From IMG/VR virus record IMGVR_UViG_2728369188_000005: 32,285 nt of DNA; one strand, 5' to 3'. Under the pieces are notes generated by a model, which worked only from the letters and a program-made list of their open reading frames with translations, had not been told where the DNA came from and did no database searches. Positions within the stretch are counted from its first letter, which is position 1. Every line of letters begins with the position of its first letter. Positions 13,306 through 32,285 of the stretch are shown in pieces. This DNA comes from a virus. Its lineage: Duplodnaviria; Heunggongvirae; Uroviricota; Caudoviricetes. The translations under genes and the position numbers were made by a program.

Positions 13306-13312
13306 GGACGAT

Positions 13313-14065: not shown

Positions 14066-14078
14066 ACGGAGGTAATAC

Positions 14079-14510
14079 ATGTTTCTGAAAACAGAACAAT
14101 TTGAATATAACGGTGTGTCTGTCACGCTTTCCGAATTGTCTGCGCTGCAGCGTATCGAGCATCTTGCCCTCCTGAAACGGCGTGCAGAACAGGAAGAATC
14201 CTGCGGCAACCTGCAGGTAAGCGTGGAAGATCTCGTCAGAACCGGCGCGTTTCTGGTGGCGATGTCCCTGTGGCATAACCATCCACAGAAAACGCAGTCA
14301 CCGTCAATGAATGAGGCCGTGATGAAGATAGAGCAGGAAGTGCTCACCACCTGGCCTGCCGATGCCATTGCCCGGGCGGAAGACGTGGTGTTGTGCCTGT
14401 CCGGGATGATCGAAGCTGTTCGTCCGGATACTGATATTACTGAAGTGGCGAAAAATAACACGCTGACTGATGATGATTTTTCTGCGGGAAAGTCTTCGAC
14501 GGCGAGCTGA
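14079..14510 (+). CDS. G: Tail assembly chaperone gpG, 143 aa
   Basis: Lambda G-like; contains the slippery heptamer G GGA AAG at 14486-14492 near its 3-prime end. Confidence 0.9.
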   Translation: MFLKTEQFEYNGVSVTLSELSALQRIEHLALLKRRAEQEESCGNLQVSVEDLVRTGAFLVAMSLWHNHPQKTQSPSMNEAVMKIEQEVLTTWPADAIARAEDVVLCLSGMIEAVRPDTDITEVAKNNTLTDDDFSAGKSSTAS

Positions 14511-14950
14511 ACTTTGCCCTCAGACTGGCGCGTGAGATGGGGAGACCCGACTGGCGCGCCATGCTTGCCGGGATGACATCCACCGAATATGCCGACTGGC
14601 ACCGTTTTTACCGCACGCATTATTTTCAGGATACCCAGCTGGATATGCATTTTTCCGGGCTGACGTACGCTGTACTCAGCCTGTTTTTTTGCGATCCGGA
14701 TATGCATCCCTCTGATTTCAGTCTGCTTGTCCCCCGGCATGAGGAAGAGCAGGTGGAGAGGCCGGATGAGGACAAAATGCTGATGCAGAAAGCGGCAGGA
14801 CTTGCCGGAGGCGTCCGGTTCGGTGGGGACGGAGGGCGCGATATTTTATCGTCTGCGGATGTGGCGGATGTCATGGTGGATGATGCCGCATTAATGATGG
14901 CTTCAGCGGGGATTCCGGGAGGTGTGAGATATGTCCCAGCCGGTTGGTGA
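14079..14950 (+). CDS. T: gpGT fusion made by -1 programmed ribosomal frameshift at GGGAAAG (14486-14492)
   Basis: After a -1 shift at 14486-14492 the frame reads GKVFDGELNFALRLAREMGRPDWRAMLAGMTSTEYADW... with no stop until 14950, collinear with the lambda gpT portion. Frame arithmetic: G codons start at positions with remainder 0 mod 3, T codons at remainder 2. Confidence 0.8.
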
Positions 14951-17477
14951 TCTTGTTATTGACCTGAGTCTGGATGCTGTCCGTTTCGATGAGCAGATGA
15001 GCCGGGTAAGGCGTCATTTTTCAGGTCTGGATACCGACGCCAGAAAAACCGCCAGTGCTGTTGAACAGGGCCTGAGCCGCCAGGCGCTGGCTGCACAAAA
15101 AGCCGGGATTTCCGTCGGGCAGTATAAAGCGGCCATGCGAACCCTGCCCGCACAGTTTACGGATATCGCCACGCAGCTTGCAGGTGGTCAGAATCCCTGG
15201 CTGATCCTGCTGCAACAGGGCGGTCAGGTGAAGGACTCCTTCGGCGGGATGATCCCCATGTTCAGGGGGCTCGCCGGTGCGATCACCCTGCCGATGGTCG
15301 GGGTCACCTCGCTGGCGGTGGCGACAGGTGCGCTGGTGTACGCCTGGTACCAGGGAGATTCCACGCTTTCAGCGTTTAATAAAACCCTGGTTCTTTCCGG
15401 TAATCAGTCCGGACTGACTGCCGATCGTATGCTGACTCTCTCAAGAGCCGGGCAGGCAGCAGGACTGACGTTTAACCAGGCGAGAGAGTCACTGGCAGCC
15501 CTGGTGAATGCCGGTGTGCGTGGTGGTGAACAGTTTGATGCCATCAACCAGAGTGTCGCGCGTTTTGCGTCTGCATCCGGTGTGGAGGTGGATAAAGTCG
15601 CTGAAGCCTTCGGGAAGCTGACCACTGACCCGACGTCGGGACTGATGGCGATGGCGCGCCAGTTCCGTAACGTGACGGCAGAGCAGATTGCGTATGTTGC
15701 ACAGCTGCAGCGTTCCGGAGACGAGGCCGGGGCATTGCAGGCGGCGAACGATATCGCCACGAAAGGCTTTGATGAGCAGACCCGTCGCCTGAAAGAAAAC
15801 ATGGGAACACTGGAGACCTGGGCGGATAAAACAGGGAAGGCATTCAAATCGATGTGGGATGCCATTCTGGATATCGGTCGTCCGGAATCCTCAGCGGATA
15901 TGCTCGCCAGTGCGCAGAAGGCATTTGATGAGGCGGATAAAAAATGGCAGTGGTACCAGAGCCGGAGCCAGCGCCGGGGAAAGACCTCCTCTTTTCGTGC
16001 GAACCTTCAGGGGGCATGGGATGACCGGGAAAATGCCCGTCTGGGTCTGGCAGCGGCCACGCTGCAGTCGGATATGGAAAAAGCCGGTGAACTGGCGGCA
16101 AGGGACCGGGCTGAGCGTGAGGCGTCACAGCTGAAGTATACCGGAGAGGCGCAGAAGGCGTATGAGCGCCTGCAGACGCCGCTGGATAAATATACCGCCC
16201 GTCAGAAAGAGCTGAATAAGGCCCTGAAAGACGGAAAAATCCTGCAGGCGGATTACAACACGCTGATGGCGTCGGCAAAAAAGGATTATGAATCGACGCT
16301 GAAAAAGCCGTCAGGTGTGAAGGTGTCTGCCGGTGAGCGCCAGGAAGACCGGGCGCATGCAGCCATGCTGGCGCTTGAAACCGAGCTCAGGACGCTGGAA
16401 AAACACAGCGGTGTGAATGAGAAAATCAGCCGGCAGCGCCGGGATTTATGGGAAGCGGAAAATCAGTATGTGGTCCTGAAAGAGGCCGCCACGAAACGGC
16501 AGTTATCTGAGCAGGAAAAATCCCTGCTGGCCCATGAGAAAGAAACGCTGGAGTACAAACGCCAGCTGGCTGAGCTGGGCGACAAGATTGAACACCAGAA
16601 ACGGCTGAATGAGCTGGCACAGCAGGCGGCGCGGTTTGAACAGCAGCAGAGCGCGAAGCAGGCGGCAATCAGCGCAAAAGCCCGCGGACTCACCGACCGT
16701 CAGGCGCAGCGGGAGTCGGAAGAGCAGCGCCTTCGTGAGGTGTACGGTGATAATCCGGCTGCGCTGGCGAAGGCCACATCTGCACTGAAGAACACCTGGT
16801 CTGCGGAGGAGCAGCTTCGTGGAAGCTGGATGGCCGGGATGAAGTCCGGCTGGGGCGAGTGGGCGGAAAGTGCGACGGACAGTTTTTCGCAGGTTAAAAA
16901 CGCGGCCACGCAGACCTTTGACGGTATTGCACAGAATATGGCAGCGATGCTGACCGGCAGCGAACAGAACTGGCGTGGTTTCACCCGTTCTGTGCTGTCC
17001 ATGCTGACAGAGATTTTTCTGAAGCAGGCGATGGTGGGGATAGTCGGGAGTATCGGCAGCGCATCCGCGTCAGGCGGTACAGCCATTCAGGCTGCGGCGG
17101 CGAACTTCCATTTCGCGACCGGGGGATTTACGGGGACGGGGGGTAAATATGAACCTGCGGGGATTGTTCATCGCGGGGAGTTTGTCTTCACGAAGGAGGC
17201 GACCAGCCGGATTGGTGTCGGCAATCTGTACCGCCTGATGCGGGGCTATGCGGAAGGTGGTTATGTCGGCGGTGCCGGAAGTCCGGCGCAGATGCGGCGG
17301 GCGGAAGGCATTAATTTTAATCAGAACAATCACGTGGTGATTCAGAACGACAGCATCAACGGACAGGCCGGGCCGCAGCTGATGAAAGCGGTGTATGAGA
17401 TGGCCCGTAAAGGTGCGCAGGATGAGCTCCGGCTGCAGTTGCGTGATGGCGGTCTGTTATCGGGGAGCGGGCGATGA
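14931..17477 (+). CDS. H: Tail tape measure protein gpH, 848 aa
   Basis: Length close to lambda H (853 aa); long alpha-helical, Ala/Gln-rich central region; starts within the T 3-prime end. Confidence 0.95.
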   Translation: MSQPVGDLVIDLSLDAVRFDEQMSRVRRHFSGLDTDARKTASAVEQGLSRQALAAQKAGISVGQYKAAMRTLPAQFTDIATQLAGGQNPWLILLQQGGQVKDSFGGMIPMFRGLAGAITLPMVGVTSLAVATGALVYAWYQGDSTLSAFNKTLVLSGNQSGLTADRMLTLSRAGQAAGLTFNQARESLAALVNAGVRGGEQFDAINQSVARFASASGVEVDKVAEAFGKLTTDPTSGLMAMARQFRNVTAEQIAYVAQLQRSGDEAGALQAANDIATKGFDEQTRRLKENMGTLETWADKTGKAFKSMWDAILDIGRPESSADMLASAQKAFDEADKKWQWYQSRSQRRGKTSSFRANLQGAWDDRENARLGLAAATLQSDMEKAGELAARDRAEREASQLKYTGEAQKAYERLQTPLDKYTARQKELNKALKDGKILQADYNTLMASAKKDYESTLKKPSGVKVSAGERQEDRAHAAMLALETELRTLEKHSGVNEKISRQRRDLWEAENQYVVLKEAATKRQLSEQEKSLLAHEKETLEYKRQLAELGDKIEHQKRLNELAQQAARFEQQQSAKQAAISAKARGLTDRQAQRESEEQRLREVYGDNPAALAKATSALKNTWSAEEQLRGSWMAGMKSGWGEWAESATDSFSQVKNAATQTFDGIAQNMAAMLTGSEQNWRGFTRSVLSMLTEIFLKQAMVGIVGSIGSASASGGTAIQAAAANFHFATGGFTGTGGKYEPAGIVHRGEFVFTKEATSRIGVGNLYRLMRGYAEGGYVGGAGSPAQMRRAEGINFNQNNHVVIQNDSINGQAGPQLMKAVYEMARKGAQDELRLQLRDGGLLSGSGR

Positions 17478-17803
17478 AAACATTTCGCTGGAAAGTGAAG
17501 CCTGATATGGAGGTGAACTCGCAGCCATCGGTGCGTGAAGTGCGTTTTGGTGACGGGTACTCACAGCGTATGGCGGCAGGGCTGAATGCTGACCTGAAAA
17601 CATACCGGGTGATGCTTTCCGTGACCCGGGAGGAGGCCCGGCATCTGGAAGCGTTTCTGGCAGAGCACGGTGGCTGGAAGGCATTTTTGTGGAAGCCACC
17701 CTATGCATACCGGCAGATAAAGGTGACCTGTGCCGGGTGGTCTGCGCGGGTCGGGATGTTGCGCGTTAAGTTCAGCGCGGAGTTTAAGCAGGTGGTGAAC
17801 TGA
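17474..17803 (+). CDS. M: Minor tail protein gpM, 109 aa
   Basis: Same 109-aa length as lambda M; ATGA overlap with H. Confidence 0.95.
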   Translation: MKTFRWKVKPDMEVNSQPSVREVRFGDGYSQRMAAGLNADLKTYRVMLSVTREEARHLEAFLAEHGGWKAFLWKPPYAYRQIKVTCAGWSARVGMLRVKFSAEFKQVVN

Positions 17804-18501
17804 TGCAGGATATTCACGAAGAAAGTCTGAACGAGTCGGTTAAATCAGAGCAGTCACCGCGGGTGGTACTCTGGGAAATCGACCTGACGGTACAGGGTGG
17901 TGAGCGGTATTTTTTCTGTAATGAGCTGAATGAAAAAGGGGAGCCGGTCATCTGGCAGGGGCGTAAGTATGAGGCATACCCGATTGACGGCAGCGGCTTT
18001 GAGATGAACGGCCGGGGCAGCAGTGCCAGACCGTCGCTGACGGTGTCCAATCTGTTCGGTCTGGTCACCGGGATGGCGGAAGACCTGCAGAGTCTGGTGG
18101 GGGCCACGGTGGTCCGCCGCCGGGTGTATGCCCGTTTTCTGGATGCGGTGAATTTCGTTGCGGGCAATCCGGAGGCGGACCCGGAGCAGGAGCTGAGTGA
18201 CCGCTGGGTGGTGGAGCAGATGTCGCAGCTGACAGCCATGACGGCCTCGTTTGTGCTGGCCACACCGACCGAGACGGACGGGGCGCTGTTTCCCGGTCGC
18301 ATCATGCTGGCGAACACCTGTATGTGGGATTACCGGGGAGATGAATGCGGGTATAACGGTCCTGCGGTGGCGGATGAGTTCGATAAACCCACCACGGATA
18401 TCCGTAAGGACAGATGCAGCAAGTGCATGCGCGGGTGTGAACTGCGCAGGAATGTCGGCAATTTTGGCGGTTTCCTTTCCATTAATAAACTTTCGCAGTA
18501 A
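17803..18501 (+). CDS. L: Minor tail protein gpL, 232 aa
   Basis: Same 232-aa length as lambda L, with the cysteine cluster near the C-terminus (CSKCMRGCELRR). Confidence 0.95.
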   Translation: MQDIHEESLNESVKSEQSPRVVLWEIDLTVQGGERYFFCNELNEKGEPVIWQGRKYEAYPIDGSGFEMNGRGSSARPSLTVSNLFGLVTGMAEDLQSLVGATVVRRRVYARFLDAVNFVAGNPEADPEQELSDRWVVEQMSQLTAMTASFVLATPTETDGALFPGRIMLANTCMWDYRGDECGYNGPAVADEFDKPTTDIRKDRCSKCMRGCELRRNVGNFGGFLSINKLSQ

Positions 18502-18511
18502 ATCCCGGTTT

Positions 18512-19255
18512 ATGACACAGACTGAATCAGCGATTCTGGCGCATGCCCGGCGGTGTGCGCCTGCGGAGTCGTGCGGCTTCGTGATAAGCACGCCGGAGGG
18601 GGAGCGGTATATCCCTTGTGTGAATATTTCCGCAGAGCCGGAGGCGTATTTTCGTATCGCACCGGAAGACTGGCTGCGGGCAGAGATGCAGGGGGAGATT
18701 GTGGCACTGGTCCACAGTCATCCCGGTGGGCTGCCCTGGCTGAGCGAGGCTGACCGGCGGCTGCAGATAAAAAGCGCACTGCCCTGGTGGCTGGTCTGCC
18801 GGGGTGACATTCACAAATTCCGCTGTGTGCCACATCTGACAGGACGGCGCTTTGAGCACGGGGTGACGGACTGTTACACGCTGTTCCGGGATGCTTATCA
18901 TCTGGCGGGGACTGAAATGCCGGATTTTCATCGCGAGGATGACTGGTGGCGCAACGGCCAGAACCTGTACCTGGACAATATGGAGGAAACGGGCTTTTAC
19001 CGGGTGCCCCTGTCCTCTGCACAGGCGGGCGATATTCTGCTGTGCTGCTTTGGTGCTTCGGTACCGAACCATGCCGCCATTTACTGCGGCAACGGTGAGC
19101 TGCTTCACCATCTGCCTGAACAACTGAGTAAACGGGAGAGGTATTCCGAAAAATGGCAACGACGAACGCATTCTGTCTGGCGTCACCGCCACTGGCACGC
19201 ATCTGCCTTCACGGGGATTTACAACGATTTGGCCGCCGCCTCAGCCTGTATGTGA
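18512..19255 (+). CDS. K: Tail assembly protein gpK (JAMM/MPN-like N-terminal part plus NlpC/P60-like C-terminal part), about 247 aa
   Basis: MTQTESAILAHARRCAPAESCGF...VHSHPGG...SEADR contains a JAMM-type HSHP motif; the C-terminal part has an NlpC/P60-like Cys/His arrangement (VTDCYTLFRDAYH). ATG 18512 is 11 nt after the L stop. The 103-nt overlap with I matches the K/I overlap I recall for lambda. Confidence 0.85.
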   Translation: MTQTESAILAHARRCAPAESCGFVISTPEGERYIPCVNISAEPEAYFRIAPEDWLRAEMQGEIVALVHSHPGGLPWLSEADRRLQIKSALPWWLVCRGDIHKFRCVPHLTGRRFEHGVTDCYTLFRDAYHLAGTEMPDFHREDDWWRNGQNLYLDNMEETGFYRVPLSSAQAGDILLCCFGASVPNHAAIYCGNGELLHHLPEQLSKRERYSEKWQRRTHSVWRHRHWHASAFTGIYNDLAAASACM

Positions 19256-19833
19256 ACACGGCAGCGGAAGCCATCCGGGCGCTGTCGTTACAGGTGCCCG
19301 GATTCCGCCGTCAGATGAACGAAGGCTGGTACCAGATACGTATTGCCGGTGAGGACACGGCACCGGAGGCGGTGTATGCCCGCCTTCACGAACAGCTGGG
19401 TGAGGGAACGGTCATCCACATTGTGCCGCGACTGGCCGGTGCCGGAAAGGGCGGACTGCAGATTGTGCTGGGGGCGGCAGCCATCGTGGGCTCTTTCTTC
19501 ACGGCCGGAGGCTCGATGGCGTTATGGGGTACAGCCCTGAGTGCCGGTGGTTTTTCTGCCACCACGATGCTGTTTTCACTGGGTGCCAGTATGATTCTGG
19601 GCGGTGTGGCCCAGATGCTGGCCCCGAAGGCAAAAACACCGGATTACCGCGCAACGGATAACGGTAAACAGAACACGTACTTTTCCTCACTGGACAACAT
19701 GATTGCCCAGGGCAACCCGATGCCGGTGCCCTACGGTGAAATGCTGGTTGGTTCACGACGTATCTCTCAGGACATCAGCACCCGTGATGAAGGCGGGGGC
19801 GGAAAGGTGGTGGTTATTGGTCGACAGGGATAA
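19153..19833 (+). CDS. I: Tail assembly protein gpI, 226 aa
   Basis: ARICLHGDLQRFGRR..., IHIVPRLAGAG..., KQNTYFSSLDNMIAQGNPMPVPYGEM is lambda I-like. Confidence 0.9.
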   Translation: MATTNAFCLASPPLARICLHGDLQRFGRRLSLYVNTAAEAIRALSLQVPGFRRQMNEGWYQIRIAGEDTAPEAVYARLHEQLGEGTVIHIVPRLAGAGKGGLQIVLGAAAIVGSFFTAGGSMALWGTALSAGGFSATTMLFSLGASMILGGVAQMLAPKAKTPDYRATDNGKQNTYFSSLDNMIAQGNPMPVPYGEMLVGSRRISQDISTRDEGGGGKVVVIGRQG

Positions 19834-19846
19834 AACATAAAAAAAT

Positions 19847-19871
19847 CCCGCAGTGATCGCGGAGCTGCGGG
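19847..19871 (-). terminator. Hairpin with U run on the minus strand (minus-strand terminator-like)
   Basis: CCCGCAG(19847-19853), 11-nt loop, CTGCGGG(19865-19871). On the minus strand the hairpin is followed by ATTTTTTTATGTTTT (complement of 19833-19846). Confidence 0.4.
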
Positions 19872-20037
19872 GACAGACAAATGAAGATTAATGTTAAGGA
19901 GTTGTTTTGGTTACTCGGGCAAAAAAACACTAACGCAGCGAAATTATAAGCGCCACAGTCAGTGTGTGAAAATGTGAAGATATTCAGAATTTTTATGCCA
20001 TTACCGGTTTTAACCAACAGGATTATCGGTGGGCATG

Positions 20038-20107
20038 AAAGAAAACCCCGGTATCTGCTGATACCGGGGTTTCTCTTTAGCATGGCAGAAATGTGTTTCA
20101 TGCTTTT
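20038..20107 (-). ncRNA. Candidate small RNA of about 70 nt (hypothetical)
   Basis: Minus-strand reading gives a sigma70-like promoter (-35 TTGCCA, complement of 20139-20144; 18-nt spacer; -10 TATCCT, complement of 20115-20120), then a 6-bp stem with 14-nt loop (20079-20104) and the 13-bp terminator hairpin with U tract. No plausible ORF. The strand and the existence of a transcript are inferred, not shown. Confidence 0.2.
20043..20078. terminator. Perfect 13-bp palindromic hairpin with U-rich tracts on both sides (bidirectional terminator-like)
   Basis: AAACCCCGGTATC(20043-20055), loop TGCT, GATACCGGGGTTT(20060-20072), followed by CTCTTT on plus; the minus-strand reading is followed by TTTTCTTTC. 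Confidence 0.5.
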
Positions 20108-20175
20108 CGGGCGAAGGATATCCGACTTCTGTACGGAATGGCAAGTGGCGGTTAATTTATTCAGGGGAAGGCTGT

Positions 20176-23100
20176 ATGGGAAAAGGTGGCGGTAAGGCAC
20201 ACACGCCTCGTGAGGCGAAGGATAATCTCAAATCCACGCAGATGATGAGTGTGATTGATGCGATTGGTGAGGGACCGATAGAAGGTCCGGTGAAGGGACT
20301 GCAGAGTATTCTGGTGAACAAAACCCCACTGACGGACACGGACGGCAATCCCGTGATACACGGTGTGACGGCGGTCTGGCGCGCCGGGGAGCAGGAGCAG
20401 ACACCACCGGAAGGCTTTGAGTCCTCCGGAGCTGAAACCGGACTGGGCGTGGAAGTGACGAAGGCAAAACCGGTGACGCGCACCATTACGTCCGCGAACA
20501 TTGACCGCCTGCGGATTACCTTCGGGGTGCAGTCACTGGTGGAGACCACCTCAAAGGGTGACCGTAACCCGGCATCCGTCCGCCTGCTGATTCAGTTACA
20601 GCGTAACGGTAACTGGGTGACAGAAAAGGACGTCACCATTAACGGCAAGACCACCTCACAGTTCCTGGCCTCGGTGATTCTGGATAATCTGCCTCCCCGG
20701 CCCTTTAACATCCGGATGGTCAGGGAGACGGCGGACAGCACCACGGACCAGCTGCAGAATAAGACGCTGTGGTCGTCATACACCGAAATCATCGATGTGA
20801 AACAGTGCTACCCGAACACGGCCATTGTGGGGCTGCAGGTGGATGCGGAGCAGTTCGGCGGCCAGCAGATGACGGTGAACTACCATATCCGCGGTCGCAT
20901 CATCCAGGTGCCGTCAAACTATGACCCGGAAAAACGCACGTACAGTGGTATCTGGGACGGCAGTCTGAAACCGGCATACAGCAACAACCCGGCCTGGTGC
21001 CTGTGGGACATGCTGACTCACCCGCGCTACGGCATGGGAAAACGTCTGGGGGCGGCGGATGTGGACAAGTGGGCGCTGTATGCCATCGGGCAGTACTGCG
21101 ACCAGACGGTCCCGGATGGTTTCGGGGGGACAGAGCCGCGGATGACCTTTAATGCGTACCTGGCACAACAGCGTAAGGCGTGGGACGTTCTCAGTGATTT
21201 CTGCTCTGCGATGCGCTGTATGCCGGTATGGAACGGTCAGACGCTGACGTTCGTTCAGGACCGCCCGTCGGATGTGGTGTGGCCGTACACCAACAGCGAT
21301 GTGGTGGTGGATGATAACGGCGTGGGATTCCGCTACAGCTTCAGTGCCCTGAAGGACCGGCACACGGCGGTGGAGGTGAATTACACCGACCCGCAGAACG
21401 GCTGGCAGACCTCCACGGAACTGGTGGAAGACCCGGAAGCCATACTGCGCTACGGACGCAACCTGCTGAAGATGGACGCGTTCGGCTGTACCAGCCGCGG
21501 TCAGGCCCACCGTGCCGGACTGTGGGTGATAAAGACCGAACTGCTGGAAACGCAGACGGTGGATTTCACGCTCGGGTCTCAGGGGCTGCGGCACACACCC
21601 GGTGACATTATTGAAATCTGTGATAATGACTATGCCGGGACCCTGACCGGCGGACGTGTCCTGTCCATTGATGCTGCCACCCGCACCCTGACGCTGGACC
21701 GTGAGGTTACCCTGCCGGAGACAGGTACATCGGCGGTGAACCTGATTAACGGCAGCGGTAAGCCGGTGAGTGTGGACATCACCGCACACCCCGCGCCGGA
21801 CCGGATACAGGTCAGTACCCTGCCTGATGGTGTGGAGACATACGGGGTGTGGGGACTCTCCCTGCCGTCACTGCGCCGTCGCCTGTTCCGCTGTGTCTCC
21901 ATCCGGGAAAACACGGACGGCACCTTTGCCATCACGGCGGTGCAGCACGTACCGGAAAAAGAAGCCATCGTGGATAACGGTGCCCGCTTTGAGCCGCAGT
22001 CAGGCTCCCTGAACAGCGTCATCCCACCGGCAGTGCAGCACCTGACGGTGGAGGTGAGCGCAGCTGACGGCCAGTATCTGGCACAGGCGAAATGGGACAC
22101 GCCGCGGGTGGTGAAGGGGGTGCGCTTCAGTCTGCGACTGACCAGCGGAAGCGGAGAAGACAGCCGTCTGGTGACCACCGCTATCACTGCGGATACAGAG
22201 CATCGTTTCAGTGGTCTGCCGCTCGGGGAATACACCCTGACAGTCAGGGCAATTAACAGTTATGGCCAGCAGGGCGAACCGGCCACCACCACCTTCCGGA
22301 TTAACGCGCCAGCAAAACCCGCCACCATTGAACTGACGCCGGGGTATTTTCAGATAACAGCGGTACCGGTGCTGGCGGTGTATGACCCGACGGTACAGTT
22401 TGAATTCTGGTTCTCAGAAAAACGCATCACGAACACGGCACAGGTGGAAAAATCTGCCCGTTATCTGGGGACTGGCAGTCAGTGGACTGTCTCCGGCCCG
22501 CACATTAAGCCCGGGAAGGATTTCTGGTTTTATGTACGCAGCGTTAACCTGGTGGGGAAATCTGCTTTTGTTGAAGCCAGTGGACGGGCCAGCAATGATG
22601 CAGAAGGGTATCTGGGGCTGTTTCGGGAAAAAATAGGAAAACTGCATCTGGCTCAGGGGCTGTGGGAGCTGATAGACAACAGCCAGCTTGCGGATGAGAT
22701 GGCGGAGATGAAGACCACCATCACCGAAACCCGCAATGAAATCACACAGACGGTCAGTAAAACGCTGGAGGACCAGAGCGCCACCATACAGCAGATACAG
22801 CGCGTGCAGAAGGACACAAATGATGACCTTGCTGCACTTTACATGCTGAAGGTACAGAAAACAAAAAATGGCATACCCTATGTTGCCGGTATTGGAGCGG
22901 GGATTGAGGATACTGATGGCCAGCCCCTGAGCAACATACTGCTGCTGGCTGACCGTATTGCGATGATTAACCCGGAGGACGGCAACACCACGCCGTTATT
23001 TGTGGCGCAGGGGAATCAGTTGTTCATGAACGATGTGTTCCTGAAGCGGCTGTTTGCGGTGAGTATCACCTCGTCCGGCAATCCCCCGACGTTTTCCCTG

Positions 23101-23649
23101 ACGCCGGAGGGCAGGCTGACCGCAAGAAATGCTGATATCAGCGGTAACGTGAATGCGAACTCCGGGACGCTCAACAACGTCACGATTAACGAGAACTGTC
23201 GGGTTCTGGGAAAATTGTCCGCCAACCAGATTGAAGGCGATCTCGTTAAAACAGTGGGCAAAGCTTTCCCCCGGGACTCCCGTGCACCGGAGCGGTGGCC
23301 ATCAGGGACCATTACCGTCAGGGTTTATGACGATCAGCCGTTTGACCGGCAAATTGTTATTCCGGCGGTGGCATTCAGTGGCGCTAAGCATGAGAGAGAG
23401 CATACTGATATTTACTCCTCATGCCGTCTGATAGTGCGGAAAAACGGTGCTGAAATTTATAACCGTACCGCGCTGGATAATACGCTGATTTACAGTGGTG
23501 TTATTGATATGCCTGCCGGTCACGGTCACATGACGCTGGAGTTTTCGGTGTCAGCATGGCTGGTGAATAACTGGTATCCCACAGCAAGTATCAGCGATTT
23601 GCTGGTTGTTGTGATGAAGAAAGCCACTGCAGGCATCACGATTAGCTGA
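20176..23649 (+). CDS. J: Host specificity protein / central tail fibre gpJ, 1157 aa
   Basis: Collinear with lambda J (1132 aa) from [21 protein letters not shown]... through the fibronectin-like repeats to a C-terminal receptor-binding region ending ...[25 protein letters not shown]. Confidence 0.95.
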
Positions 23650-23668
23650 ATTTTATAACCCAGATACG

Positions 23669-23692
23669 GGCGCCAGAAATGGCGCCTTTTTT
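23669..23692 (+). terminator. Intrinsic terminator after J
   Basis: GGCGCCA(23669-23675), loop GAAA, TGGCGCC(23680-23686), then TTTTTT(23687-23692). The second copy at 26727-26750 keeps the structure through compensatory changes. Confidence 0.7.
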
Positions 23693-23716
23693 ATTGCAGA
23701 AAAGCGAGAGGTAATT

Positions 23717-24316
23717 ATGCGTAAATTATGTGCTGTTATTCTGTCCACAGTAGTCTGGCTGGTCGCCGCTGGTACGCCAGCGAGCGCAGCAGAGCATCAG
23801 TCCACACTAAGCGCGGGGTATCTTCATGCCCGTACGAACGCTCCCGGCAGCGATAATCTGAACGGGATTAACGTGAAATACCGTTATGAGTTTACGGACG
23901 CGCTGGGGCTGATTACGTCCTTCAGTTATGCCAATGCTGAGGATAAGCAAAAAACGCACTACAGCGATACCCGCTGGCATGAAGATTCCGTGCGTAACCG
24001 CTGGTTCAGCGTGATGGCGGGGCCGTCTGTGCGCGTGAATGAATGGTTCAGCGCGTATGTGATGGCGGGTATGGCTTACAGCCGTGTGTCGACTTTCTCC
24101 GGGGATTATCTCCGCGTAACTGACAACAAGGGGAAAAAGCACGATGTGCTGACCGGAAGTGATGACGGTCGCCACAGCAACACGTCTCTGGCGTGGGGGG
24201 CTGGCGTGCAGTTTAACCCGACCGAATCCGTGGCCATTGATATTGCTTATGAAGGCTCCGGCAGTGGCGACTGGCGCACTGACGGTTTCATCGTGGGTGT
24301 CGGTTATAAGTTCTGA
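23717..24316 (+). CDS. lom: Lom outer-membrane protein (Ail/Lom family beta-barrel), 199 aa
   Basis: Signal peptide (MRKLCAVILSTVVWLVAAGTPASA) followed by alternating beta-strand sequence ending in the C-terminal aromatic GYKF; lambda lom position directly after J. GAGAGG Shine-Dalgarno. Confidence 0.9.
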   Translation: MRKLCAVILSTVVWLVAAGTPASAAEHQSTLSAGYLHARTNAPGSDNLNGINVKYRYEFTDALGLITSFSYANAEDKQKTHYSDTRWHEDSVRNRWFSVMAGPSVRVNEWFSAYVMAGMAYSRVSTFSGDYLRVTDNKGKKHDVLTGSDDGRHSNTSLAWGAGVQFNPTESVAIDIAYEGSGSGDWRTDGFIVGVGYKF

Positions 24317-24342
24317 TTAGCCAGGTAACACAGTGTTATGAC

Positions 24343-24369
24343 AGCCCGCCGGTTCAGGCGGGCTTTTTT
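24343..24369 (+). terminator. Intrinsic terminator after lom
   Basis: AGCCCGCC(24343-24350), loop GGTTCA, GGCGGGCT(24357-24364), then TTTTT(24365-24369). Confidence 0.65.
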
Positions 24370-24380
24370 GTGGAGTGGAT

Positions 24381-24390
24381 NNNNNNNNNN
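24381..24390. other. Assembly gap (10 N)
   Basis: Run of n. Sequence before the gap ends at the stf 5-prime leader (GTGGAGTGGAT); sequence after it resumes in the middle of a J homologue. Confidence 0.95.
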
Positions 24391-26707
24391 CTTCAGCGCC
24401 CTGAAGGACCGCCATAATGCCGTTGAGGTGAACTGGATTGACCCGAACAACGGCTGGGAGACGGCGACAGAGCTTGTTGAAGATACGCAGGCCATTGCCC
24501 GTTACGGTCGTAATGTCACGAAGATGGATGCCTTTGGCTGTACCAGCCGGGGGCAGGCACACCGCGCCGGGCTGTGGCTGATTAAAACGGAACTGCTGGA
24601 AACGCAGACCGTGGATTTCAGCGTGGGCGCAGAAGGGCTTCGCCATGTGCCGGGCGATGTTATTGAAATCTGCGATGATGACTATGCCGGTATCAGCACC
24701 GGTGGTCGCGTGCTGGCGGTGAACAGCCAGACCCGGACGCTGACTCTCGACCGTGAAATCACGCTGCCATCCTCCGGTACCACGCTGATAAGCCTGGTTG
24801 ACGGAAGTGGCAATCCGGTCAGCGTGGAGGTTCAGTCCGTCACCGACGGCGTGAAGGTAAAAGTGAGCCGTGTTCCTGACGGTGTTGCTGAATACAGCGT
24901 ATGGGGGCTGAAGCTGCCGACGCTGCGCCAGCGACTGTTCCGCTGCGTGAGTATCCGTGAGAACGACGACGGCACGTATGCCATCACCGCCGTGCAGCAT
25001 GTGCCGGAAAAAGAGGCCATCGTGGATAACGGGGCGCACTTTGACGGCGAACAGAGTGGCACGGTGAATGGTGTCACGCCGCCAGCGGTGCAGCACCTGA
25101 CCGCAGAAGTCACTGCAGACAGCGGGGAATATCAGGTGCTGGCGCGATGGGACACACCGAAGGTGGTGAAGGGCGTGAGCTTCCTGCTTCGCCTGACCGT
25201 GGCAGCGGATGACGGCAGTGAGCGGCTGGTCAGCACGGCCCGGACGACGGAAACCACATACCGCTTCACGCAACTGGCGCTGGGAAACTACAGGCTGACA
25301 GTCCGGGCGGCAAATGCCTGGGGGCAGCAGGGCGATCCGGCATCGGTATCGTTCCGTATTGCCGCACCGGCAGCGCCGTCGCGGATTGAGCTGACGCCGG
25401 GCTATTTTCAGATAACCGCCACGCCCCATCTTGCCGTTTATGATCCGACGGTACAGTTTGAGTTCTGGTTCTCGGAAAAGCGGATTGCGGATATCAGGCA
25501 GGTTGAAACCACAGCCCGCTATCTTGGCACGGCGCTGTACTGGATAGCTGCCAGTATCAATATCAAACCGGGCCATGATTATTATTTTTACATCCGCAGT
25601 GTGAACACCGTTGGCAAATCGGCATTTGTGGAGGCTGTTGGCCAGCCGAGTGATGATGCATCCGGCTATCTGGATTTTTTCAAAGGCGAGATAGGGAAAA
25701 GCCATCTGGCTCAGGAGCTGTGGACGCAGATTGATAACGGTCAGCTTGCGCCTGACCTGGCTGAAATCAGGACGTCCATTACGGATGTCAGCAATGAAAT
25801 CACGCAGACCGTCAATAAGAAACTGGAAGACCAGAGTGCGGCAATTCAGCAGATACAGAAGGTTCAGGTTGATACAAATAATAACCTGAACAGCATGTGG
25901 GCTGTGAAGCTGCAGCAGATGCAGGACGGACGCCTTTATATCGCGGGTATTGGTGCCGGTATTGAGAATACCCCTGACGGTATGCAGAGTCAGGTGCTGC
26001 TGGCGGCGGACAGGATTGCGATGATTAATCCTGCGAATGGCAATACAAAGCCGATGTTTGTTGGTCAGGGCGATCAGATATTCATGAACGAAGTGTTCCT
26101 GAAATATCTGACGGCTCCCACCATTACCAGCGGCGGTAATCCTCCGGCATTTTCCCTGACACCGGACGGGCGGCTGACGGCGAAAAATGCCGATATCAGC
26201 GGTAGCGTGAATGCGAACTCCGGGACGCTCAACAACGTCACGATTAACGAGAACTGTCGGGTTCTGGGAAAACTGTCCGCGAACCAGATTGAAGGCGATC
26301 TCGTTAAAACAGTGGGCAAAGCTTTCCCCCGGGACTCCCGTGCACCGGAGCGGTGGCCATCAGGGACCATTACCGTCAGGGTTTATGACGATCAGCCGTT
26401 TGACCGGCAAATTGTTATTCCGGCGGTGGCATTCAGTGGCGCTAAGCATGAGAGAGAGCATACTGATATTTACTCCTCATGCCGTCTGATAGTGCGGAAA
26501 AACGGTGCTGAAATTTATAACCGTACCGCGCTGGATAATACGCTGATTTACAGTGGCGTTATTGATATGCCTGCCGGTCACGGTCACATGACGCTGGAGT
26601 TTTCGGTGTCAGCATGGCTGGTAAATGACTGGTATCCCACAGCAAGTATCAGCGATTTGCTGGTTGTGGTGATGAAGAAAGCCACCGCAGGCATCAGTAT
26701 CAGCTGA
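24391..26707 (+). CDS. J: Second gpJ copy, 5-prime truncated by the gap (C-terminal ~770 aa present), diverged from copy 1
   Basis: Begins [31 protein letters not shown]..., which aligns with J copy 1 from about residue 385. Roughly 70-80% identical by eye through most of its length, but nearly identical over the last ~500 nt (26206-26620 versus 23148-23560). Confidence 0.85.
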
Positions 26708-26726
26708 ATTTTATAACCCCAATACG

Positions 26727-26750
26727 GGCGTCAGAAATGACGCCTTTTTT
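26727..26750 (+). terminator. Intrinsic terminator after J copy 2
   Basis: GGCGTCA(26727-26733), loop GAAA, TGACGCC(26738-26744), then TTTTTT. Differs from copy 1 by a compensatory pair (C to T in the left arm, G to A in the right arm). Confidence 0.7.
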
Positions 26751-26774
26751 ATTGCAGAAAAGCGAGAGGTAATT

Positions 26775-27374
26775 ATGCGTAAATTATGTGCTGTTATTCT
26801 GTCCACAGTAGTCTGGCTGGTCGCCGCTGGTACGCCAGCGAGCGCAGCAGAGCATCAGTCCACACTAAGCGCCGGGTATCTTCAGACCCATACTGATATG
26901 CCCGGCAACGATGACCTGAAGGGCATTAACGTGAAATACCGTTATGAATTTACGGACACGCTGGGGCTGGTGACGTCATTCAGTTATGCCAATGCCAAAG
27001 ATGAGCAAAAAACGCATTACAGCGATACCCGCTGGCATGAAGATTCAGTGCGTAACCGCTGGTTCAGCATGATGGCGGGGCCGTCTGTACGCGTGAATGA
27101 ATGGTTCAGTGCTTATGCGATGGCAGGTGTGGCTTACAGCCGTGTTTCGACTTTTTCCGGGGATTATCTCCGCGTAACTGACAGCAAGGGGAAAACGCAC
27201 GATGTGCTGACCGGAAGTGATGACGGTCGCCACAGCAACACGTCTCTGGCGTGGGGGGCTGGCGTGCAGTTTAACCCGACCGAATCCGTGGCCATTGATA
27301 TTGCTTATGAAGGCTCCGGCAGTGGTGACTGGCGCACTGACGGTTTCATCGTGGGTGTCGGTTATAAATTCTGA
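26775..27374 (+). CDS. lom: Lom outer-membrane protein, second copy, 199 aa
   Basis: About 90% identical by eye to lom copy 1 (differences include HARTNAPGSDNLNG versus QTHTDMPGNDDLKG); same signal peptide and C-terminus. Confidence 0.9.
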   Translation: MRKLCAVILSTVVWLVAAGTPASAAEHQSTLSAGYLQTHTDMPGNDDLKGINVKYRYEFTDTLGLVTSFSYANAKDEQKTHYSDTRWHEDSVRNRWFSMMAGPSVRVNEWFSAYAMAGVAYSRVSTFSGDYLRVTDSKGKTHDVLTGSDDGRHSNTSLAWGAGVQFNPTESVAIDIAYEGSGSGDWRTDGFIVGVGYKF

Positions 27375-27400
27375 TTAGCCAGGTAACACAGTGTTATGAC

Positions 27401-27427
27401 AGCCCGCCGGTTCAGGCGGGCTTTTTT
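27401..27427 (+). terminator. Intrinsic terminator after lom copy 2
   Basis: Same AGCCCGCC / GGCGGGCT hairpin and T run as after lom copy 1. Confidence 0.65.
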
Positions 27428-27438
27428 GTGGAGTGGAT

Positions 27439-29846
27439 ATGGCAGCAGTAAAAATCTCAGGTGTGCTGAAAGATGGTGCGGGAAAACCAATACAGAACTG
27501 CACTATTCAACTGAAGGCAAAGCGTAACAGCACCACGGTACTGGTGAACACGGTGGCCTCTGAAAATCCTGATGAAGCCGGGCGTTACAGCATGGATGTT
27601 GAGTATGGCCAGTACAGCGTCACCCTGCTGGTTGAAGGTTNNNNNNNNNNNNNNNNNNNNNNNNNNNNNNNNNNNNNNNNNNNNNNNNNNNNNNNNNNNN
27701 NNNNNNNNNTTCCAGACCAGGTACGCTGAATGATTTTCTCGGTGCCATGACGGAGGATGATGTCCGACCGGAGGCACTGCGCCGCTTTGAGCAGATGGTG
27801 GAAGAAGCGGCACGCAACGCTGAAGCCGCCTCTCAGAGCGCAGCGGCGGCAAAGAAATCCGAAACTGCAGCGGCATCATCGAAGAACGCGGCGAAAACCT
27901 CAGAAACGAATGCAGCTAATAGTGCACAGGCGGCAGCGACCTCAAAGACTGCATCGGCAAACTCCGCGACAGCAGCCAAAAAATCAGAAACCAACGCGAA
28001 AAATAGCGAGACAGCCGCAAAGACGAGCGAAACCAACGCAAAGTCCAGCCAGACGGCAGCGAAAACCAGCGAAACGAATGCCAAAGCCAGTGAAACTGCG
28101 GCAAAAAACAGCCAGGTTGCAGCAGCCCAAAGCGAGAGCGCGGCAGCCGGTTCTGCGACTTCAGCAGCTGGATCAGCAACTGCTGCAGCTAACAGCCAGA
28201 AAGCAGCGAAGACGAGCGAAACTAACGCAAAGTCCAGCCAGACGGCAGCGAAGACCAGCGAAACGAATGCCAAAGCCAGCGAAACTGCGGCGAAAAACAG
28301 CCAGGTTGCAGCAGCCCAAAGCGAGAGCGCGGCAGTTGGTTCTGCAAGCGCGGCGGCTGCTTCTGCCACTGCATCAGCCAACAGTCAAAAAGCGGCAAAA
28401 ACCAGTGAAACCAATGCAAAGACAAGCGAGACTGCAGCGGCCAACTCGGCGAAAGCATCCGCTGCAAACCAGACCGCTGCAAAAGCAAGTGAAGACGCAG
28501 CCAGAGAGTATGCAAGCCAGGCAGCAGATCCGTATAAATATGTCTTACAGCCGCTGCCTGATGTGTGGATACCGTTTAACGATTCACTGGATATGATTAC
28601 GGGCTTTTCGCCATCATATAAAAAGATTGTTATTGGTGACGACGAAATAACGATGCCTGGCGACAAGATTGTTAAGTTTAAACGTGCATCGAAAGCAACC
28701 TATATTAACAAATCTGGTGTGCTGACAGAGGCTGCCATTGATGAGCCACGATTTGAACGTGATGGCCTGCTTATTGAGGGGCAAAGAACTAATCTTCTGC
28801 TTAATTCAACAAATCCATCTAAATGGAATAAGTCAGGCAATCTGGAACTCACAGAAATATCCACGGATTCTTTTAATTTTACTTATGGGAGATTTACTGT
28901 AAAAGATACTCTTATTGGTCAGACAAGTGCTATTAATATCGTAACGGTTTCTGGCAGTAAAGGGTTTGATGTCACAGGTGATGAAAAATATGTGACCATT
29001 TCATGCCGTGTAAGAAGTGATGTTGAAAATGTAAGGTGTCGTTTAAGATTTGAACACCATGATGGTTATACTTACACTTTTTTGGGAGATGCTTACCTCA
29101 ATTTATCAACACTTGTAATTGATAAAGCTGGTACTGCTGCAGACCGTATTATTGCAAAGGCTGTAAAAGATGAGGTTACTGGTTGGATTTTCTATCAGGC
29201 TACAATTAATGCACTAGATACAGAGAGCATGATTGGTGCGATGGTTCAATACGCTCCTGTAAAAGGTTCAGGCACAGCATCTGGAGACTATCTGGATATC
29301 GCAACTCCACAAGTGGAAGGTGGATCAAGTGCTTCGTCATTTATTGTAACTGATATAACTGCAAGCACTCGCGCAAGCGATATGGTGACAGTCCCAATCA
29401 AGAATAACCTTTATAATCTTCCTTTTACGGTTCTTTGTGAGGTACATAAGAACTGGTATAAAACGCCAAATGCAGCACCGCGTGTTTTTGATACCGGCGG
29501 TCATCAAACCGGAGCGGCTATTATTCTTGGCTTCGGTCGTTCAACAGATTACGACGGATTTCCTTATTGTGATATAGGTTTGGCTAACAGACGGGTAAAC
29601 GAAAACGCATCGCTTGAAAAAATGGTTATGGGGATGCGTGTAAAGTCAGATCAGTCTACGTGCTCAGTAAGTAACGGGCGTATATCCAGCGAAAAGAAAG
29701 CCACATGGTCCTATATTCAGAACTCCGCAATTATCCGTATTGGAGGCCAGACTACAGCCGGGTTACGTCATTTATTTGGTCATGTCAGGAATTTCAGAAT
29801 ATGGCACAAGGCATTGACTGATGCTCAGATGGGGGAGTCAATCTAA
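27439..29846 (+). CDS. stf: Side tail fibre protein Stf, interrupted by the N gap at 27641-27709
   Basis: N-terminus MAAVKISGVLKDGAGKPIQNCTIQLKAKRNSTTVLVNTVASENPDEAGRYSMDVEYGQYSVTLLVEG matches lambda Stf. After the gap the frame continues ...PGTLNDFLGAMTEDDVRPEALRRFEQMVEE..., then an Ala/Ser/Thr-rich repeat shaft and a ~430-aa C-terminal domain. True length and frame continuity across the gap are unknown. Confidence 0.85.
27641..27709. other. Assembly gap (69 N) inside stf
   Basis: Run of n. Confidence 0.95.
28018..28395 (+). repeat. Tandem duplication of a 189-bp (63-aa) unit within the stf shaft
   Basis: GACGAGCGAAAC...AGCCAGACGGCAGCG recurs with period 189 nt (28022 and 28211); protein unit AKTSETNAKSSQTAAKTSETNAKASETAAKNSQVAAAQSESAA... 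occurs twice. Confidence 0.7.
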
Positions 29847-30074
29847 TGAAAGATTTAACACTCAAATTTGCAGACAGGGCCGACTTTTCGGCCTTTATGG
29901 ATAGCATTGGCTATTATGATGACGAGTCGATGCAGGATGATATTCTTATTGACGTGATAGGTAATGTGTACAAAGAAACCGGAGAACTGACTGAAGATGG
30001 CGAACCGGTATGTGTTAAGGAAGACGGATATTTTGTAAACGTGCGCATCATTAATGATTCGCAAATATCGTCAT
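29846..30074 (+). CDS. Hypothetical protein, 3-prime end lost in the N gap (N-terminal 76 aa visible)
   Basis: ATG 29846 overlaps the stf stop (TAATG), with GGGGGAG 8 nt upstream. MKDLTLKFADRADFSAFMDSIGYYDDESMQDDILIDVIGNVYKETGELTEDGEPVCVKEDGYFVNVRIINDSQISS; acidic and soluble; not recognised. Confidence 0.5.
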
Positions 30075-30172
30075 NNNNNNNNNNNNNNNNNNNNNNNNNN
30101 NNNNNNNNNNNNNNNNNNNNNNNNNNNNNNNNNNNNNNNNNNNNNNNNNNNNNNNNNNNNNNNNNNNNNNNN
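30075..30172. other. Assembly gap (98 N)
   Basis: Run of n. Confidence 0.95.
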
Positions 30173-30833
30173 GGGAGATGTCAGTAAGGCAAAGGAAGAT
30201 ATTTCCTCAATTAACGTAAAAGTATCAACGCTTCAGACTGATATGGACAGTGCAAAGCAGGATATCAGTACCAGATACACAAAAACAGAAGTGGATAATA
30301 AGCTGAAAAACAAAGTGGAAGTGAACGATCTGGAAAGTGGTCGTTATGGCGGAGATTTTTACCCGCTGACTGGCCGTGAAGCGTTTTATTTATGGGGATT
30401 GGGCACAACTACAGCGGCGGCAAATCTTTATCTTAATCCTGACCCCGCAATTTCGTCTGTGCTGCGGTCAACATCGTCTATCCGCTATAAACATTCAGTA
30501 GAGACGATAGATTCAGAGCACGCCGATCTCATTTTCAGGATGCGCCCTGTGTGGTACAGGTCGCAATGCGAAAATGACAGGCGTGACTGGGGATTCTATG
30601 GATTGATTGCCGAGGAAGTAGGAGAAATTGCCCCTCAGTTTGTTCACTGGCGACCAGCTAACGAGAATGATGCTCCTGAAGCTATTTCCAGCAATGGCCT
30701 TGTTGCCGAAGGTGTAATGTACGAACGTCTGGTTGTTCCACTGATTCACCATATCCAGAAACTGACTGAAAGAGTTGATGAACTTGAGTCAGAATTAAAG
30801 TTGTTATCAACTTCCCGAAGCGATATCGGATAA
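30173..30833 (+). CDS. C-terminal part of a tail fibre/tailspike with a peptidase-S74-type intramolecular chaperone domain (5-prime end in gap)
   Basis: Coiled-coil stretch (DISSINVKVSTLQTDMDSAKQDISTRYTKTEVDNKLKNKVEVNDLE), then SSIRYKHSVETIDSEHADLIF...DWGFYGLIAEEVGEIAPQFV...NGLVAEGVMYERLVVPLIHHIQKLTERVDELESELKLL. From memory this is the hallmark of the self-cleaving C-terminal chaperone of phage fibres (endosialidase, T5 L-fibre type). Confidence 0.6.
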
Positions 30834-30843
30834 AGGAGGAGTA

Positions 30844-31137
30844 ATGGATATAACACCTTTCCTTCATGCACTTTGTGCTGTGGCTGCGCAGGTACTGGTT
30901 GGTCTTTTTACCGGAAACTGGGCTTACGGGGCGATAGCCGGTTGTACGTTCTTCATTGCTCGTGAACATACCCAGGCAGAATATCGCTGGATTGAAATGT
31001 TCGGGCATGGCAAGCGAATGAATATGCCGTGGTGGGGCGGTTTTGATCCGCGCGCGTGGGATGTAGCAAGTCTGATGGATTTTGCTGTGCCGGTGGTGGC
31101 GTGTCTGCTGGTCTGGCTGTTGGTTAATCGTGGGTGA
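30844..31137 (+). CDS. Small predicted membrane protein, 97 aa, function unknown
   Basis: Perfect AGGAGG Shine-Dalgarno 4 nt upstream of ATG 30844. Two or three hydrophobic segments (FLHALCAVAAQVLVGLF, AYGAIAGCTFFIA, FAVPVVACLLVWLLV). Confidence 0.6.
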   Translation: MDITPFLHALCAVAAQVLVGLFTGNWAYGAIAGCTFFIAREHTQAEYRWIEMFGHGKRMNMPWWGGFDPRAWDVASLMDFAVPVVACLLVWLLVNRG

Positions 31138-31147
31138 AAAAAGGTGA

Positions 31148-31276
31148 GCTGTATATGCAACGGAGGAAGAAACCTCGTTGCTGGAAGCCTGGAAGAAGTA
31201 TCGGGTGTTGCTGAACCGTGTTGATACATCAACTGCACCTGATATTGAGTGGCCTACGAACCCTGTCAGGGAGTAA
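31148..31276 (+). pseudogene. tfa: Remnant 3-prime end of a tail fibre assembly gene (tfa), no start codon
   Basis: Reads ...[39 protein letters not shown] stop, the conserved Tfa C-terminus. It is preceded in frame by a stop at 31145-31147 and has no upstream Tfa N-terminal domain. Confidence 0.6.
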
Positions 31277-31416
31277 TCATTGGGATTATGCCGCAGCACG
31301 TCTTAAGCAAGAACGTGCTGCGGTTGGATGCTATTTTTTCCCTGAAGCGGAAAACATTACTACAGTACCTTGAACCTTGGTTTTAACATTCTCGAAATGC
31401 TCTGAGAGTATATGTG

Positions 31417-31950
31417 TTAAGCCTTCTTCGGAATCTTTTGTGNNNNNNNNNNNNNNNNNNNNNNNNNNNNNNNNNNNNNNNNNNNNNNNNNNNNNNNNNN
31501 NNNNNNNNNNNNNNNNNNNNNNNNNNNNNNNNNNNNNNNNNNNNNNNNNNNNNNNNNNNNNNNNNNNNNNNNNNNNNNNNNNNNNNNNNNNNNNNNNNNN
31601 NNNNNNNNNNNNNNNNNNNNNNNNNNNNNNNNNNNTTCAAAAACATCATGGCTAATTTTATGTTTAATTTTTGATTCCCCAGCCCTTGTAGATGCCGCGT
31701 TCAGGCTAGCTTCGTTCAAATCCATTAAAGATATCAGACTACTCTCAGGTACGTGAGTAAGATAAAACCCAGTTCCAACACCAATATCCAGATGGTTGTT
31801 ACCTAAATGTTCCAGAAAGTGTGGAAGAAGGTGTTCCTTTGTAGGACATCCCCATGCAAGCCGATTTGATACTCCCAAAACCCACCAGTCATAAAGCTTT
31901 AGGGTAAGTGGTGTGTAAATTTTAGCCCCATCATCTGTGTTTTTTTTCAT
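31417..31950 (-). CDS. Class I SAM-dependent methyltransferase-like protein (minus strand), interrupted by the N gap at 31443-31635
   Basis: Minus-strand ORF whose N-terminal 105 aa (MKKNTDDGAKIYTPLTLKLYDWWVLGVSNRLAWGCPTKEHLLPHFLEHLGNNHLDIGVGTGFYLTHVPESS...) contains a Rossmann motif-I-like LDIGVGTGF. GGTGA Shine-Dalgarno precedes ATG 31950 (alternative ATG 31962). The C-terminal 8 codons after the gap end at the stop at 31417-31419; frame across the gap is unverifiable. Confidence 0.45.
   Translation of the reverse strand: MKKNTDDGAKIYTPLTLKLYDWWVLGVSNRLAWGCPTKEHLLPHFLEHLGNNHLDIGVGTGFYLTHVPESSLISLMDLNEASLNAASTRAGESKIKHKISHDVFEXXXXXXXXXXXXXXXXXXXXXXXXXXXXXXXXXXXXXXXXXXXXXXXXXXXXXXXXXXXXXXXXXQKIPKKA
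31443..31635. other. Assembly gap (193 N)
   Basis: Run of n. Confidence 0.95.
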
Positions 31951-32018
31951 TGATTTCACCATGTTATAGTTTTATTTGTGAATTAAATCAATTATGGCGA
32001 TGAATTACAAGGGGTTAA

Positions 32019-32285
32019 ATGCTGCCGCAGCATAGCGATATTGAAATAGCCTGGTATGCTTCGATACAGCAGGAGCCGAATGGCTGGAAGACCGTCACCA
32101 CACAGTTCTACATCCAGGAATTCAGTGAGTATATTGCGCCACTGCAGGATGCTGTAGATCTGGAAATCGCAACGGAGGAAGAAAGATCGTTGCTGGAGGC
32201 ATGGAATAAATATCGGGTGTTGTTGAATCGTGTTGATACATCAACTGCACCTGATATTGAGTGGCCGACTTCACCTGCAGAGTAA
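32019..32285 (+). CDS. tfa: Tail fibre assembly protein Tfa-like, short form (C-terminal domain only), 88 aa
   Basis: ...[50 protein letters not shown] matches the conserved lambda/e14 Tfa C-terminus. AAGGGG Shine-Dalgarno before ATG 32019; stop coincides with the window end. Confidence 0.7.

Follow-up and report, generated by a model that had tools for sequence, protein, structure and literature searches.

The 32,285-nucleotide stretch of DNA analysed here as a whole (the window) appears to carry two J-lom modules one after the other. Comparison with closed genomes that we regard as relatives of the window's strain makes it very probable that the second module is a contig of another prophage, misplaced in the scaffold, and thus an assembly artefact; the J-lom duplication is no real feature of the genome. 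The initial annotation had ranked first the reading that a scaffolder joined two lambdoid prophages with a common lom-stf junction, and this was borne out, as the two alleles lie at separate loci and the flanks in the first prophage (prophage A) are contiguous. The join is indeed the work of a scaffolder, but the two prophages are not set end to end: a contig of 3,250 bp from the second prophage (prophage B) sits where prophage A has a gap of 242 bp, and after position 27709 the scaffold is back in prophage A.

The window was scaffolded from five contigs, and four N-runs separate them: one of exactly 10 N at 24381–24390, followed by runs of 69 N (27641–27709), 98 N (30075–30172) and 193 N (31443–31635). 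The 10-N gap after the first lom, its terminator and the stf leader had been described earlier and is present as described. The three runs downstream of it were absent from that description; on their evidence, the entire right end of the window was scaffolded from short contigs.

The mapping of the contigs to a closed genome, proposed in the initial annotation, was run on closed relatives and places the two J alleles in two separate prophages. We searched 5,426 closed E. coli genomes with the allele-specific part of each J, 2,955 bp for the first copy (J_A) and 1,789 bp for the second (J_B). In FDAARGOS_536, 21AR0173 and AREA_492, both parts were found at 100% identity on one chromosome, with the two loci on opposite strands and 817–837 kb (~0.82 Mb) apart. 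All segments were mapped to FDAARGOS_536 (locus L001 for prophage A, L002 for prophage B) and to 21AR0173 (L005 and L006), and AREA_492 was assigned by its J alleles. Prophage A adjoins potB. The four loci retrieved are lambdoid late regions of the ordinary kind, in each of which J, lom and a 2,379-bp stf occur once.

Segment 1 (1–24380) contains the late region of prophage A, with an esterase, lysis genes, terminase, head and tail genes, J_A, lom_A, a terminator and the stf leader; its positions 176–24380 match L001 1–24205 with one mismatch and no gaps. Segment 2 (24391–27640) matches prophage B (L002 20000–23249) with two mismatches and no gaps, and is only 81.7% identical to prophage A. 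From there on, the window returns to L001: segment 3 (27710–30074), which holds the body of stf_A to its stop at 29846 and then the next gene, maps to 24448–26812 with seven mismatches, and segments 4 (30173–31442) and 5 (31636–32285) map without mismatches to 26919–28188 and 28419–29068. The identity of segment 3 to prophage B is 91% over 27711–28808. The same assignment was obtained with 21AR0173, in which positions 13200–24380 of the window are 100% identical. Segments 1, 3, 4 and 5 are thus collinear in prophage A, and segment 2 alone derives from prophage B. The lom_A gene runs directly into the 2,379-bp stf in both closed genomes that were mapped in full, and the end of segment 1 is separated from the start of segment 3 by 242 bp in prophage A (L001 24206–24447), the 5' end of stf. 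The inserted piece therefore lies at another locus, and its flanks are adjacent, in closed genomes of the same clone.

All features of the two modules are on the forward strand of the window. J_A (20176–23649) encodes a complete tail tip attachment protein J of 1157 aa with all six gpJ Pfam domains above their cut-offs (FNIII-A_GpJ, Phage-tail_3, Ig_J, Ig_J_second, Phage_Tail_Tip and Ig_GpJ_C). The queried stretch, 20176–23130, is 100% identical to the J of prophage A in the three closed genomes, and RefSeq annotates that gene as gpJ. It is followed by lom_A (23717–24316; 199 aa), an Ail/Lom outer-membrane beta-barrel protein matching Pfam PF06316 (Ail_Lom) over profile positions 1–199 of 199 (E = 4e-125) and annotated in L001 at 23542–24141. 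The terminator scan placed an intrinsic terminator hairpin at 24343–24364 (AGCCCGCC-GGTTCA-GGCGGGCT followed by TTTTTT), after which segment 1 terminates with GGGCTTTTTTGTGGAGTGGAT at 24380.

The second copy starts inside a second J and continues with a second lom, the same terminator and the start of stf, all as the initial annotation had reported. The entry into J had been put at about residue 385, and is in fact at residue 389, the first complete codon. The J_B fragment (24392–26707) is in frame from its first position and covers residues 389–1159 and the stop of a gene that is complete, with 1159 aa, in the closed genomes. It carries the five C-terminal gpJ domains, the first of which, Phage-tail_3, is truncated and begins at profile position 60 of 164. 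The lom_B gene (26775–27374; 199 aa) was assigned from Pfam and from comparison with lom_A; it matches PF06316 over profile positions 1–199 of 199 (E = 4e-126) and is followed by a terminator hairpin of 22 nt at 27401–27422, identical in sequence to that after lom_A. The stf leader GTGGAGTGGAT reaches 24380 in the first copy and 27438 in the second, and the stf ATG comes directly after the second leader, at 27439. The first 67 codons of stf_B (27439–27640) match the Pfam phage_tail_N family (E = 3e-32) and show no mismatches to prophage B and five to prophage A. The stf of the scaffold is a B/A chimera in which the 5' end of stf_B replaces the missing 5' end of stf_A.

Aligned over ~3.04 kb, the modules (21340–24380 and 24392–27438) are 80.6% identical. 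The J copies had been called clearly diverged over ~1.8 kb, which agrees with the identities of 52–81% per 100 bp that we computed there; from about 23127 in the first copy and 26185 in the second, the identity rises to 96–100%. The lom copies are 81–99% identical per 100 bp, and the final 54 bp of the modules are without difference. At the protein level, J_A and J_B are 76% identical overall and 60–84% across the N-terminal and central domains; residues 999–1026 are identical at 28 of 28 positions, and the receptor-binding domain Ig_GpJ_C at 129 of 131 (98.5%). Lom_A and Lom_B share 182 of 199 residues, with 8 of the 17 differences clustered at residues 37–49. This pattern of sharing between prophages A and B is ordinary lambdoid mosaicism. 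The two co-resident prophages are near-identical in the receptor-binding domain of J, in lom and in the 5' end of stf, and differ in the rest of J.

The ends of the contigs coincide with exact repeats between the prophages. A 189-bp exact match (A 24136–24324, B 22978–23166) extends from the 3' end of lom through the terminator and the leader to 119 bp into stf. Segment 1 stops within this match, at A 24205, so that the first 70 bp of the repeat are found at 24311–24380 of the window. A second exact match of 71 bp (A 24377–24447) is separated from the first by five SNPs only (stf positions 120, 132, 144, 166 and 171). The 3' end of segment 2 falls within this 71-bp repeat, and segment 3 begins with the first base past it that differs between A and B. 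Three contig ends, the end of segment 1, the 3' end of segment 2 and the start of segment 3, are thereby placed at exact repeats. At the 5' end of segment 2 (J_B codon 389) there is no exact A/B match of at least 25 bp, the nearest being one of 29 bp about 100 bp upstream. FDAARGOS_536 has four J-like places, and we suspect that a third J paralogue is behind the contig break at this codon.

The lengths of the N-runs tell the joins apart. Those of 69, 98 and 193 N approximate true distances of 40, 106 and 230 bp, and the 10 N match no real distance. The true content of the 69-N gap is the 40 bp at A 24408–24447, inside the 71-bp stretch identical between A and B. With segment 2 positioned from its 3' end, the implied distance between segments 1 and 2 is about −3,048 bp, that is, an overlap. 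Scaffolders commonly write a negative gap as a fixed minimal N-run.

The origins of the segments, the contiguity of prophage A in the closed genomes and the contig ends at exact repeats are direct observations, and together they argue for a scaffold misjoin and against a tandem duplication. The misjoin could have arisen as follows. The strain would carry two lambdoid prophages, A beside potB and B ~0.82 Mb away in inverted orientation, whose J C-termini, lom genes, terminators and stf 5' ends would be near-identical. Within the 189-bp repeat, a short-read assembler would have ended its contig of prophage A, and the 242-bp stf 5' end belonging to A would have stayed unassembled, leaving the 3,250-bp B contig, from J_B codon 389 to stf_B codon 67, as the sole contig with stf 5' sequence. 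Read pairs from prophage A spanning the repeat would have connected the B contig with lom_A on its upstream side and with stf_A on its downstream side, and the scaffolder would for that reason have set it between the two. As the implied distance was negative (about −3 kb), a minimal spacer would have been written; that the 10 N represent such a floor value is our reading of the run length.

Further support for the misjoin comes from the mismatches. At each of the nine positions where segments 2 and 3 differ from both closed genomes, the window has the other prophage's allele (2/2 and 7/7, respectively). Those in segment 2 form a single two-SNP site between exact repeats of 155 bp and 110 bp, and the B-type patches in segment 3 are two short islands, 27920–27923 and 28187–28223, in otherwise A-type sequence. 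The presence of paralogue alleles at the mismatches is the pattern expected of a collapsed short-read consensus of paralogous sequences. In E. coli O157:H7, false SNPs have been traced to Illumina reads mapped ambiguously to paralogous sequences, and the masking of homologous regions such as prophages has been recommended (PMC8190617). The window resembles known repeat-induced misjoins in short-read assemblies with paralogous lambdoid prophages in having an N-run at the join, an inserted contig that maps elsewhere, contig ends at exact inter-prophage repeats and paralogue alleles at the mismatches, and differs from them in nothing substantive. Our literature search on the misassembly of lambdoid prophages gave generic results or none, the relevant work on E. 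coli O157 being PMC8190617 and PMC8743559.

The initial annotation had also offered genuine tandem J-lom modules as a possibility, and this did not survive the comparison, the modules being separate prophages in the closed genomes. Such a tandem in this strain would mean that the B fragment, consisting of J from codon 389, lom and the 5' end of stf, was inserted between lom_A and stf_A. The scaffolder's order of the pieces agrees with this, and the right junction could form by homologous recombination in the exact repeats of 71–189 bp. The left junction, in contrast, is bridged by Ns alone: the sequence does not run uninterrupted from copy to copy, the sequences flanking the 10-N join have no homology with each other, and the folded Phage-tail_3 domain is interrupted by the join at profile position 60 of 164. 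When the 5,426 closed E. coli genomes were searched with an artificial junction, made of 400 bp from the end of lom_A and 400 bp from the start of J_B, none covered at least 80% of it, and the arrangement is absent from the three closed genomes that belong to essentially the same clone (0–7 mismatches per segment). Moreover, A and B lie in opposite orientations, and inverted prophage repeats recombine to give inversions rather than tandems (PMC8743559). We consider a genuine tandem very improbable. Should it nevertheless be true, which has the same very small probability, a real capture from B would leave prophage A with an additional lom and a spare J fragment that lacks a promoter, and the captured fragment could serve as a recombination reservoir for alleles of the central domains of the tail tip, in outline like the case of S42.

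S42 (NZ_CP010236.1), the single genome among the 5,426 with any adjacency of lom followed by J, is the other point in favour of a tandem. Its closed assembly has a gap-free, head-to-tail J'-lom' duplication with an in-register unit of 3,007 bp, the copies being 98% identical with 61 mismatches and no indels. The annotated order, J, truncated lom, N-terminally truncated J, lom and stf, is superficially like that of the window. However, the junction in S42 leads from the middle of lom to J at about residue 308, whereas in the window it lies after the stf leader; furthermore, S42 has no N-gap and copies 98% identical, as opposed to a 10-N gap, copies 80.6% identical and pieces at two loci in the window. 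The S42 junction was found in no other genome among the 5,426. We therefore rejected S42 as a precedent, as its junction is a different one and its structure a singleton; closed assemblies can contain structures of this kind, as S42 shows, but it gives no support for a tandem in the window. Similarly rejected was H5 (strain MS 196-1), the one top match that spanned >3.25 kb, in which J is split by an IS3 insertion and there is no tandem.

Another explanation is a hybrid prophage formed by inversion, in which recombination in the lom-stf repeat swapped the distal ends of A and B; the link between segments 2 and 3 would then be real and that between segments 1 and 2 false. Prophages A and B are inverted and ~0.82 Mb apart, and such pairs are documented substrates of large inversions in E. 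coli (PMC8743559). The gap between segments 2 and 3 is a sized one (69 N for an expected 40 bp), and segment 3 contains short B-type patches. On the other hand, segments 1 and 3 are adjacent in both mapped closed relatives, and the scaffold itself puts segment 1 upstream of segment 3. The two short B-type islands are better explained by a collapsed consensus or by gene conversion than by one crossover, and the shared repeats of 71–189 bp are far below the repeats of at least 5 kb analysed in PMC8743559. We regard this inversion as highly unlikely. It is less probable still, to a degree that we judge nearly negligible, that the alleles were assembled together from two different strains or phages present in a mixed or contaminated culture: two diverged alleles of one module in one scaffold would be consistent with that, but three independent closed single-isolate genomes hold both alleles at 100% on one chromosome, and a mixture is therefore needless.

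With the second module very probably a misplaced contig, the resident J of prophage A is the first copy, J_A. The join had been said to change which J allele, and thereby which host-range determinant, belongs to this prophage. The choice falls on J_A, but its effect on the host range is largely moot. The C-terminus of lambda J determines the receptor, and the name of the Pfam family agrees with this. Because the Ig_GpJ_C domains are identical at 129 of 131 positions, choosing one J or the other makes hardly any difference to the predicted host range, and the receptor specificity predicted from the C-terminal sequence would be the same for either allele.

The misjoin matters more for annotation. 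The scaffold contains a false 789-aa 'J' open reading frame (24338–26707) that runs from the lom terminator across the Ns, a surplus lom, and a chimeric stf with its first 67 codons from another prophage. Counts of tail-fibre or lom copies and inference of the host range for prophage A should use J_A at 20176–23649, and the sequence can be corrected by taking out 24381–27709 and putting in the 242 bp of L001 24206–24447. As the duplication is nonexistent, its biological weight is small, and the practical value lies in the corrected sequence.

The layout of each prophage is that of the J - lom - stf - tfa block of phage lambda, both keeping the canonical order of J, lom, terminator and stf, and the Pfam domains in the window are those of gpJ, Ail/Lom and the N-terminus of the prophage tail fibre. 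The window departs from that block in its seemingly two J-lom units, the second of which the closed relatives do not have. Among deposited phages, the closest over the C-terminus of J and the lom region were Escherichia phage JLK-2012 (96%) and Stx-converting phages (94%).

Segment 2, the prophage-B contig (window 24391–27640), and segment 3, which belongs to prophage A (27710–30074), differed from the closed genomes FDAARGOS_536 and 21AR0173 at nine positions in all (26437, 26446, 27920, 27923, 28187, 28198, 28205, 28217, and 28223), and at every one of them the segment carried the allele of the other prophage. Such a pattern could reflect a short-read consensus that has been collapsed, or else genuine gene conversion over short tracts between the co-resident prophages.

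The false join of the lom_A side to the middle of J_B at the 10-N run (24381–24390) is crossed by a 789-aa ORF in the mechanical ORF list (24338–26707), which starts at an ATG in the terminator region of lom_A, passes through the 10 N, and continues into J_B. This ORF is a spurious gene, and automatic annotation of the scaffold could call it. The prophage-B contig has its 5′ end at window 24391 (corresponding to position 20000 of L002, the prophage B locus of FDAARGOS_536, and to J_B codon 388/389), and there we found no exact repeat of at least 25 bp between prophages A and B. As FDAARGOS_536 contains four J-like places, a third J paralogue may lie behind this break.

Three more N-gaps, of 69, 98, and 193 N, fall in the stf/tfa region (27641–27709, 30075–30172, and 31443–31635), approximating true distances of 40, 106, and 230 bp, respectively, in the closed genome. 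Within stf_A, the stretch 28002–28439 holds internal direct repeats of ∼240–250 bp with ∼85% identity (28010–28250 vs. 28191–28439, an offset of ∼190 bp), which probably represent fibre-shaft modules in repeated copies and are a likely further cause of assembly breaks. The 193-N gap splits a minus-strand gene for a class I SAM-dependent methyltransferase (28077–28745 of L001, the prophage A locus, or approximately window 31331–31962). The gene is flanked by two tail-fibre-assembly pseudogene fragments, one on either side, which have in common a 98-bp repeat (31157–31254 vs. 32169–32266) with 92% identity.

A gapless head-to-tail tandem was seen in the closed genome of E. coli S42 (NZ_CP010236.1; 2091–8102 of locus L004), where a 3,007-bp unit reaching from J residue ∼308 to mid-lom occurs twice, the copies differing by 61 mismatches and no indels (98% identity). 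The annotated gene order is J, truncated lom, truncated J, lom, and stf. Among 5,426 closed genomes, the tandem junction was found in S42 alone, and the arrangement may be either a genuine product of recombination or a misassembly of early long reads.

The late region of prophage A opens (window 1–1857) with a SASA-family carbohydrate esterase gene, located upstream of the lysis genes for holin, lysozyme, and Rz. Its right end is adjoined by potB, with potA, pepT, and phoQP further out (window 32285 onward; L001 29301 onward). Beyond prophage B lie manganese catalase and ferritin-like genes and then a block with RepL, H-NS-like, and DotA/TraY genes.
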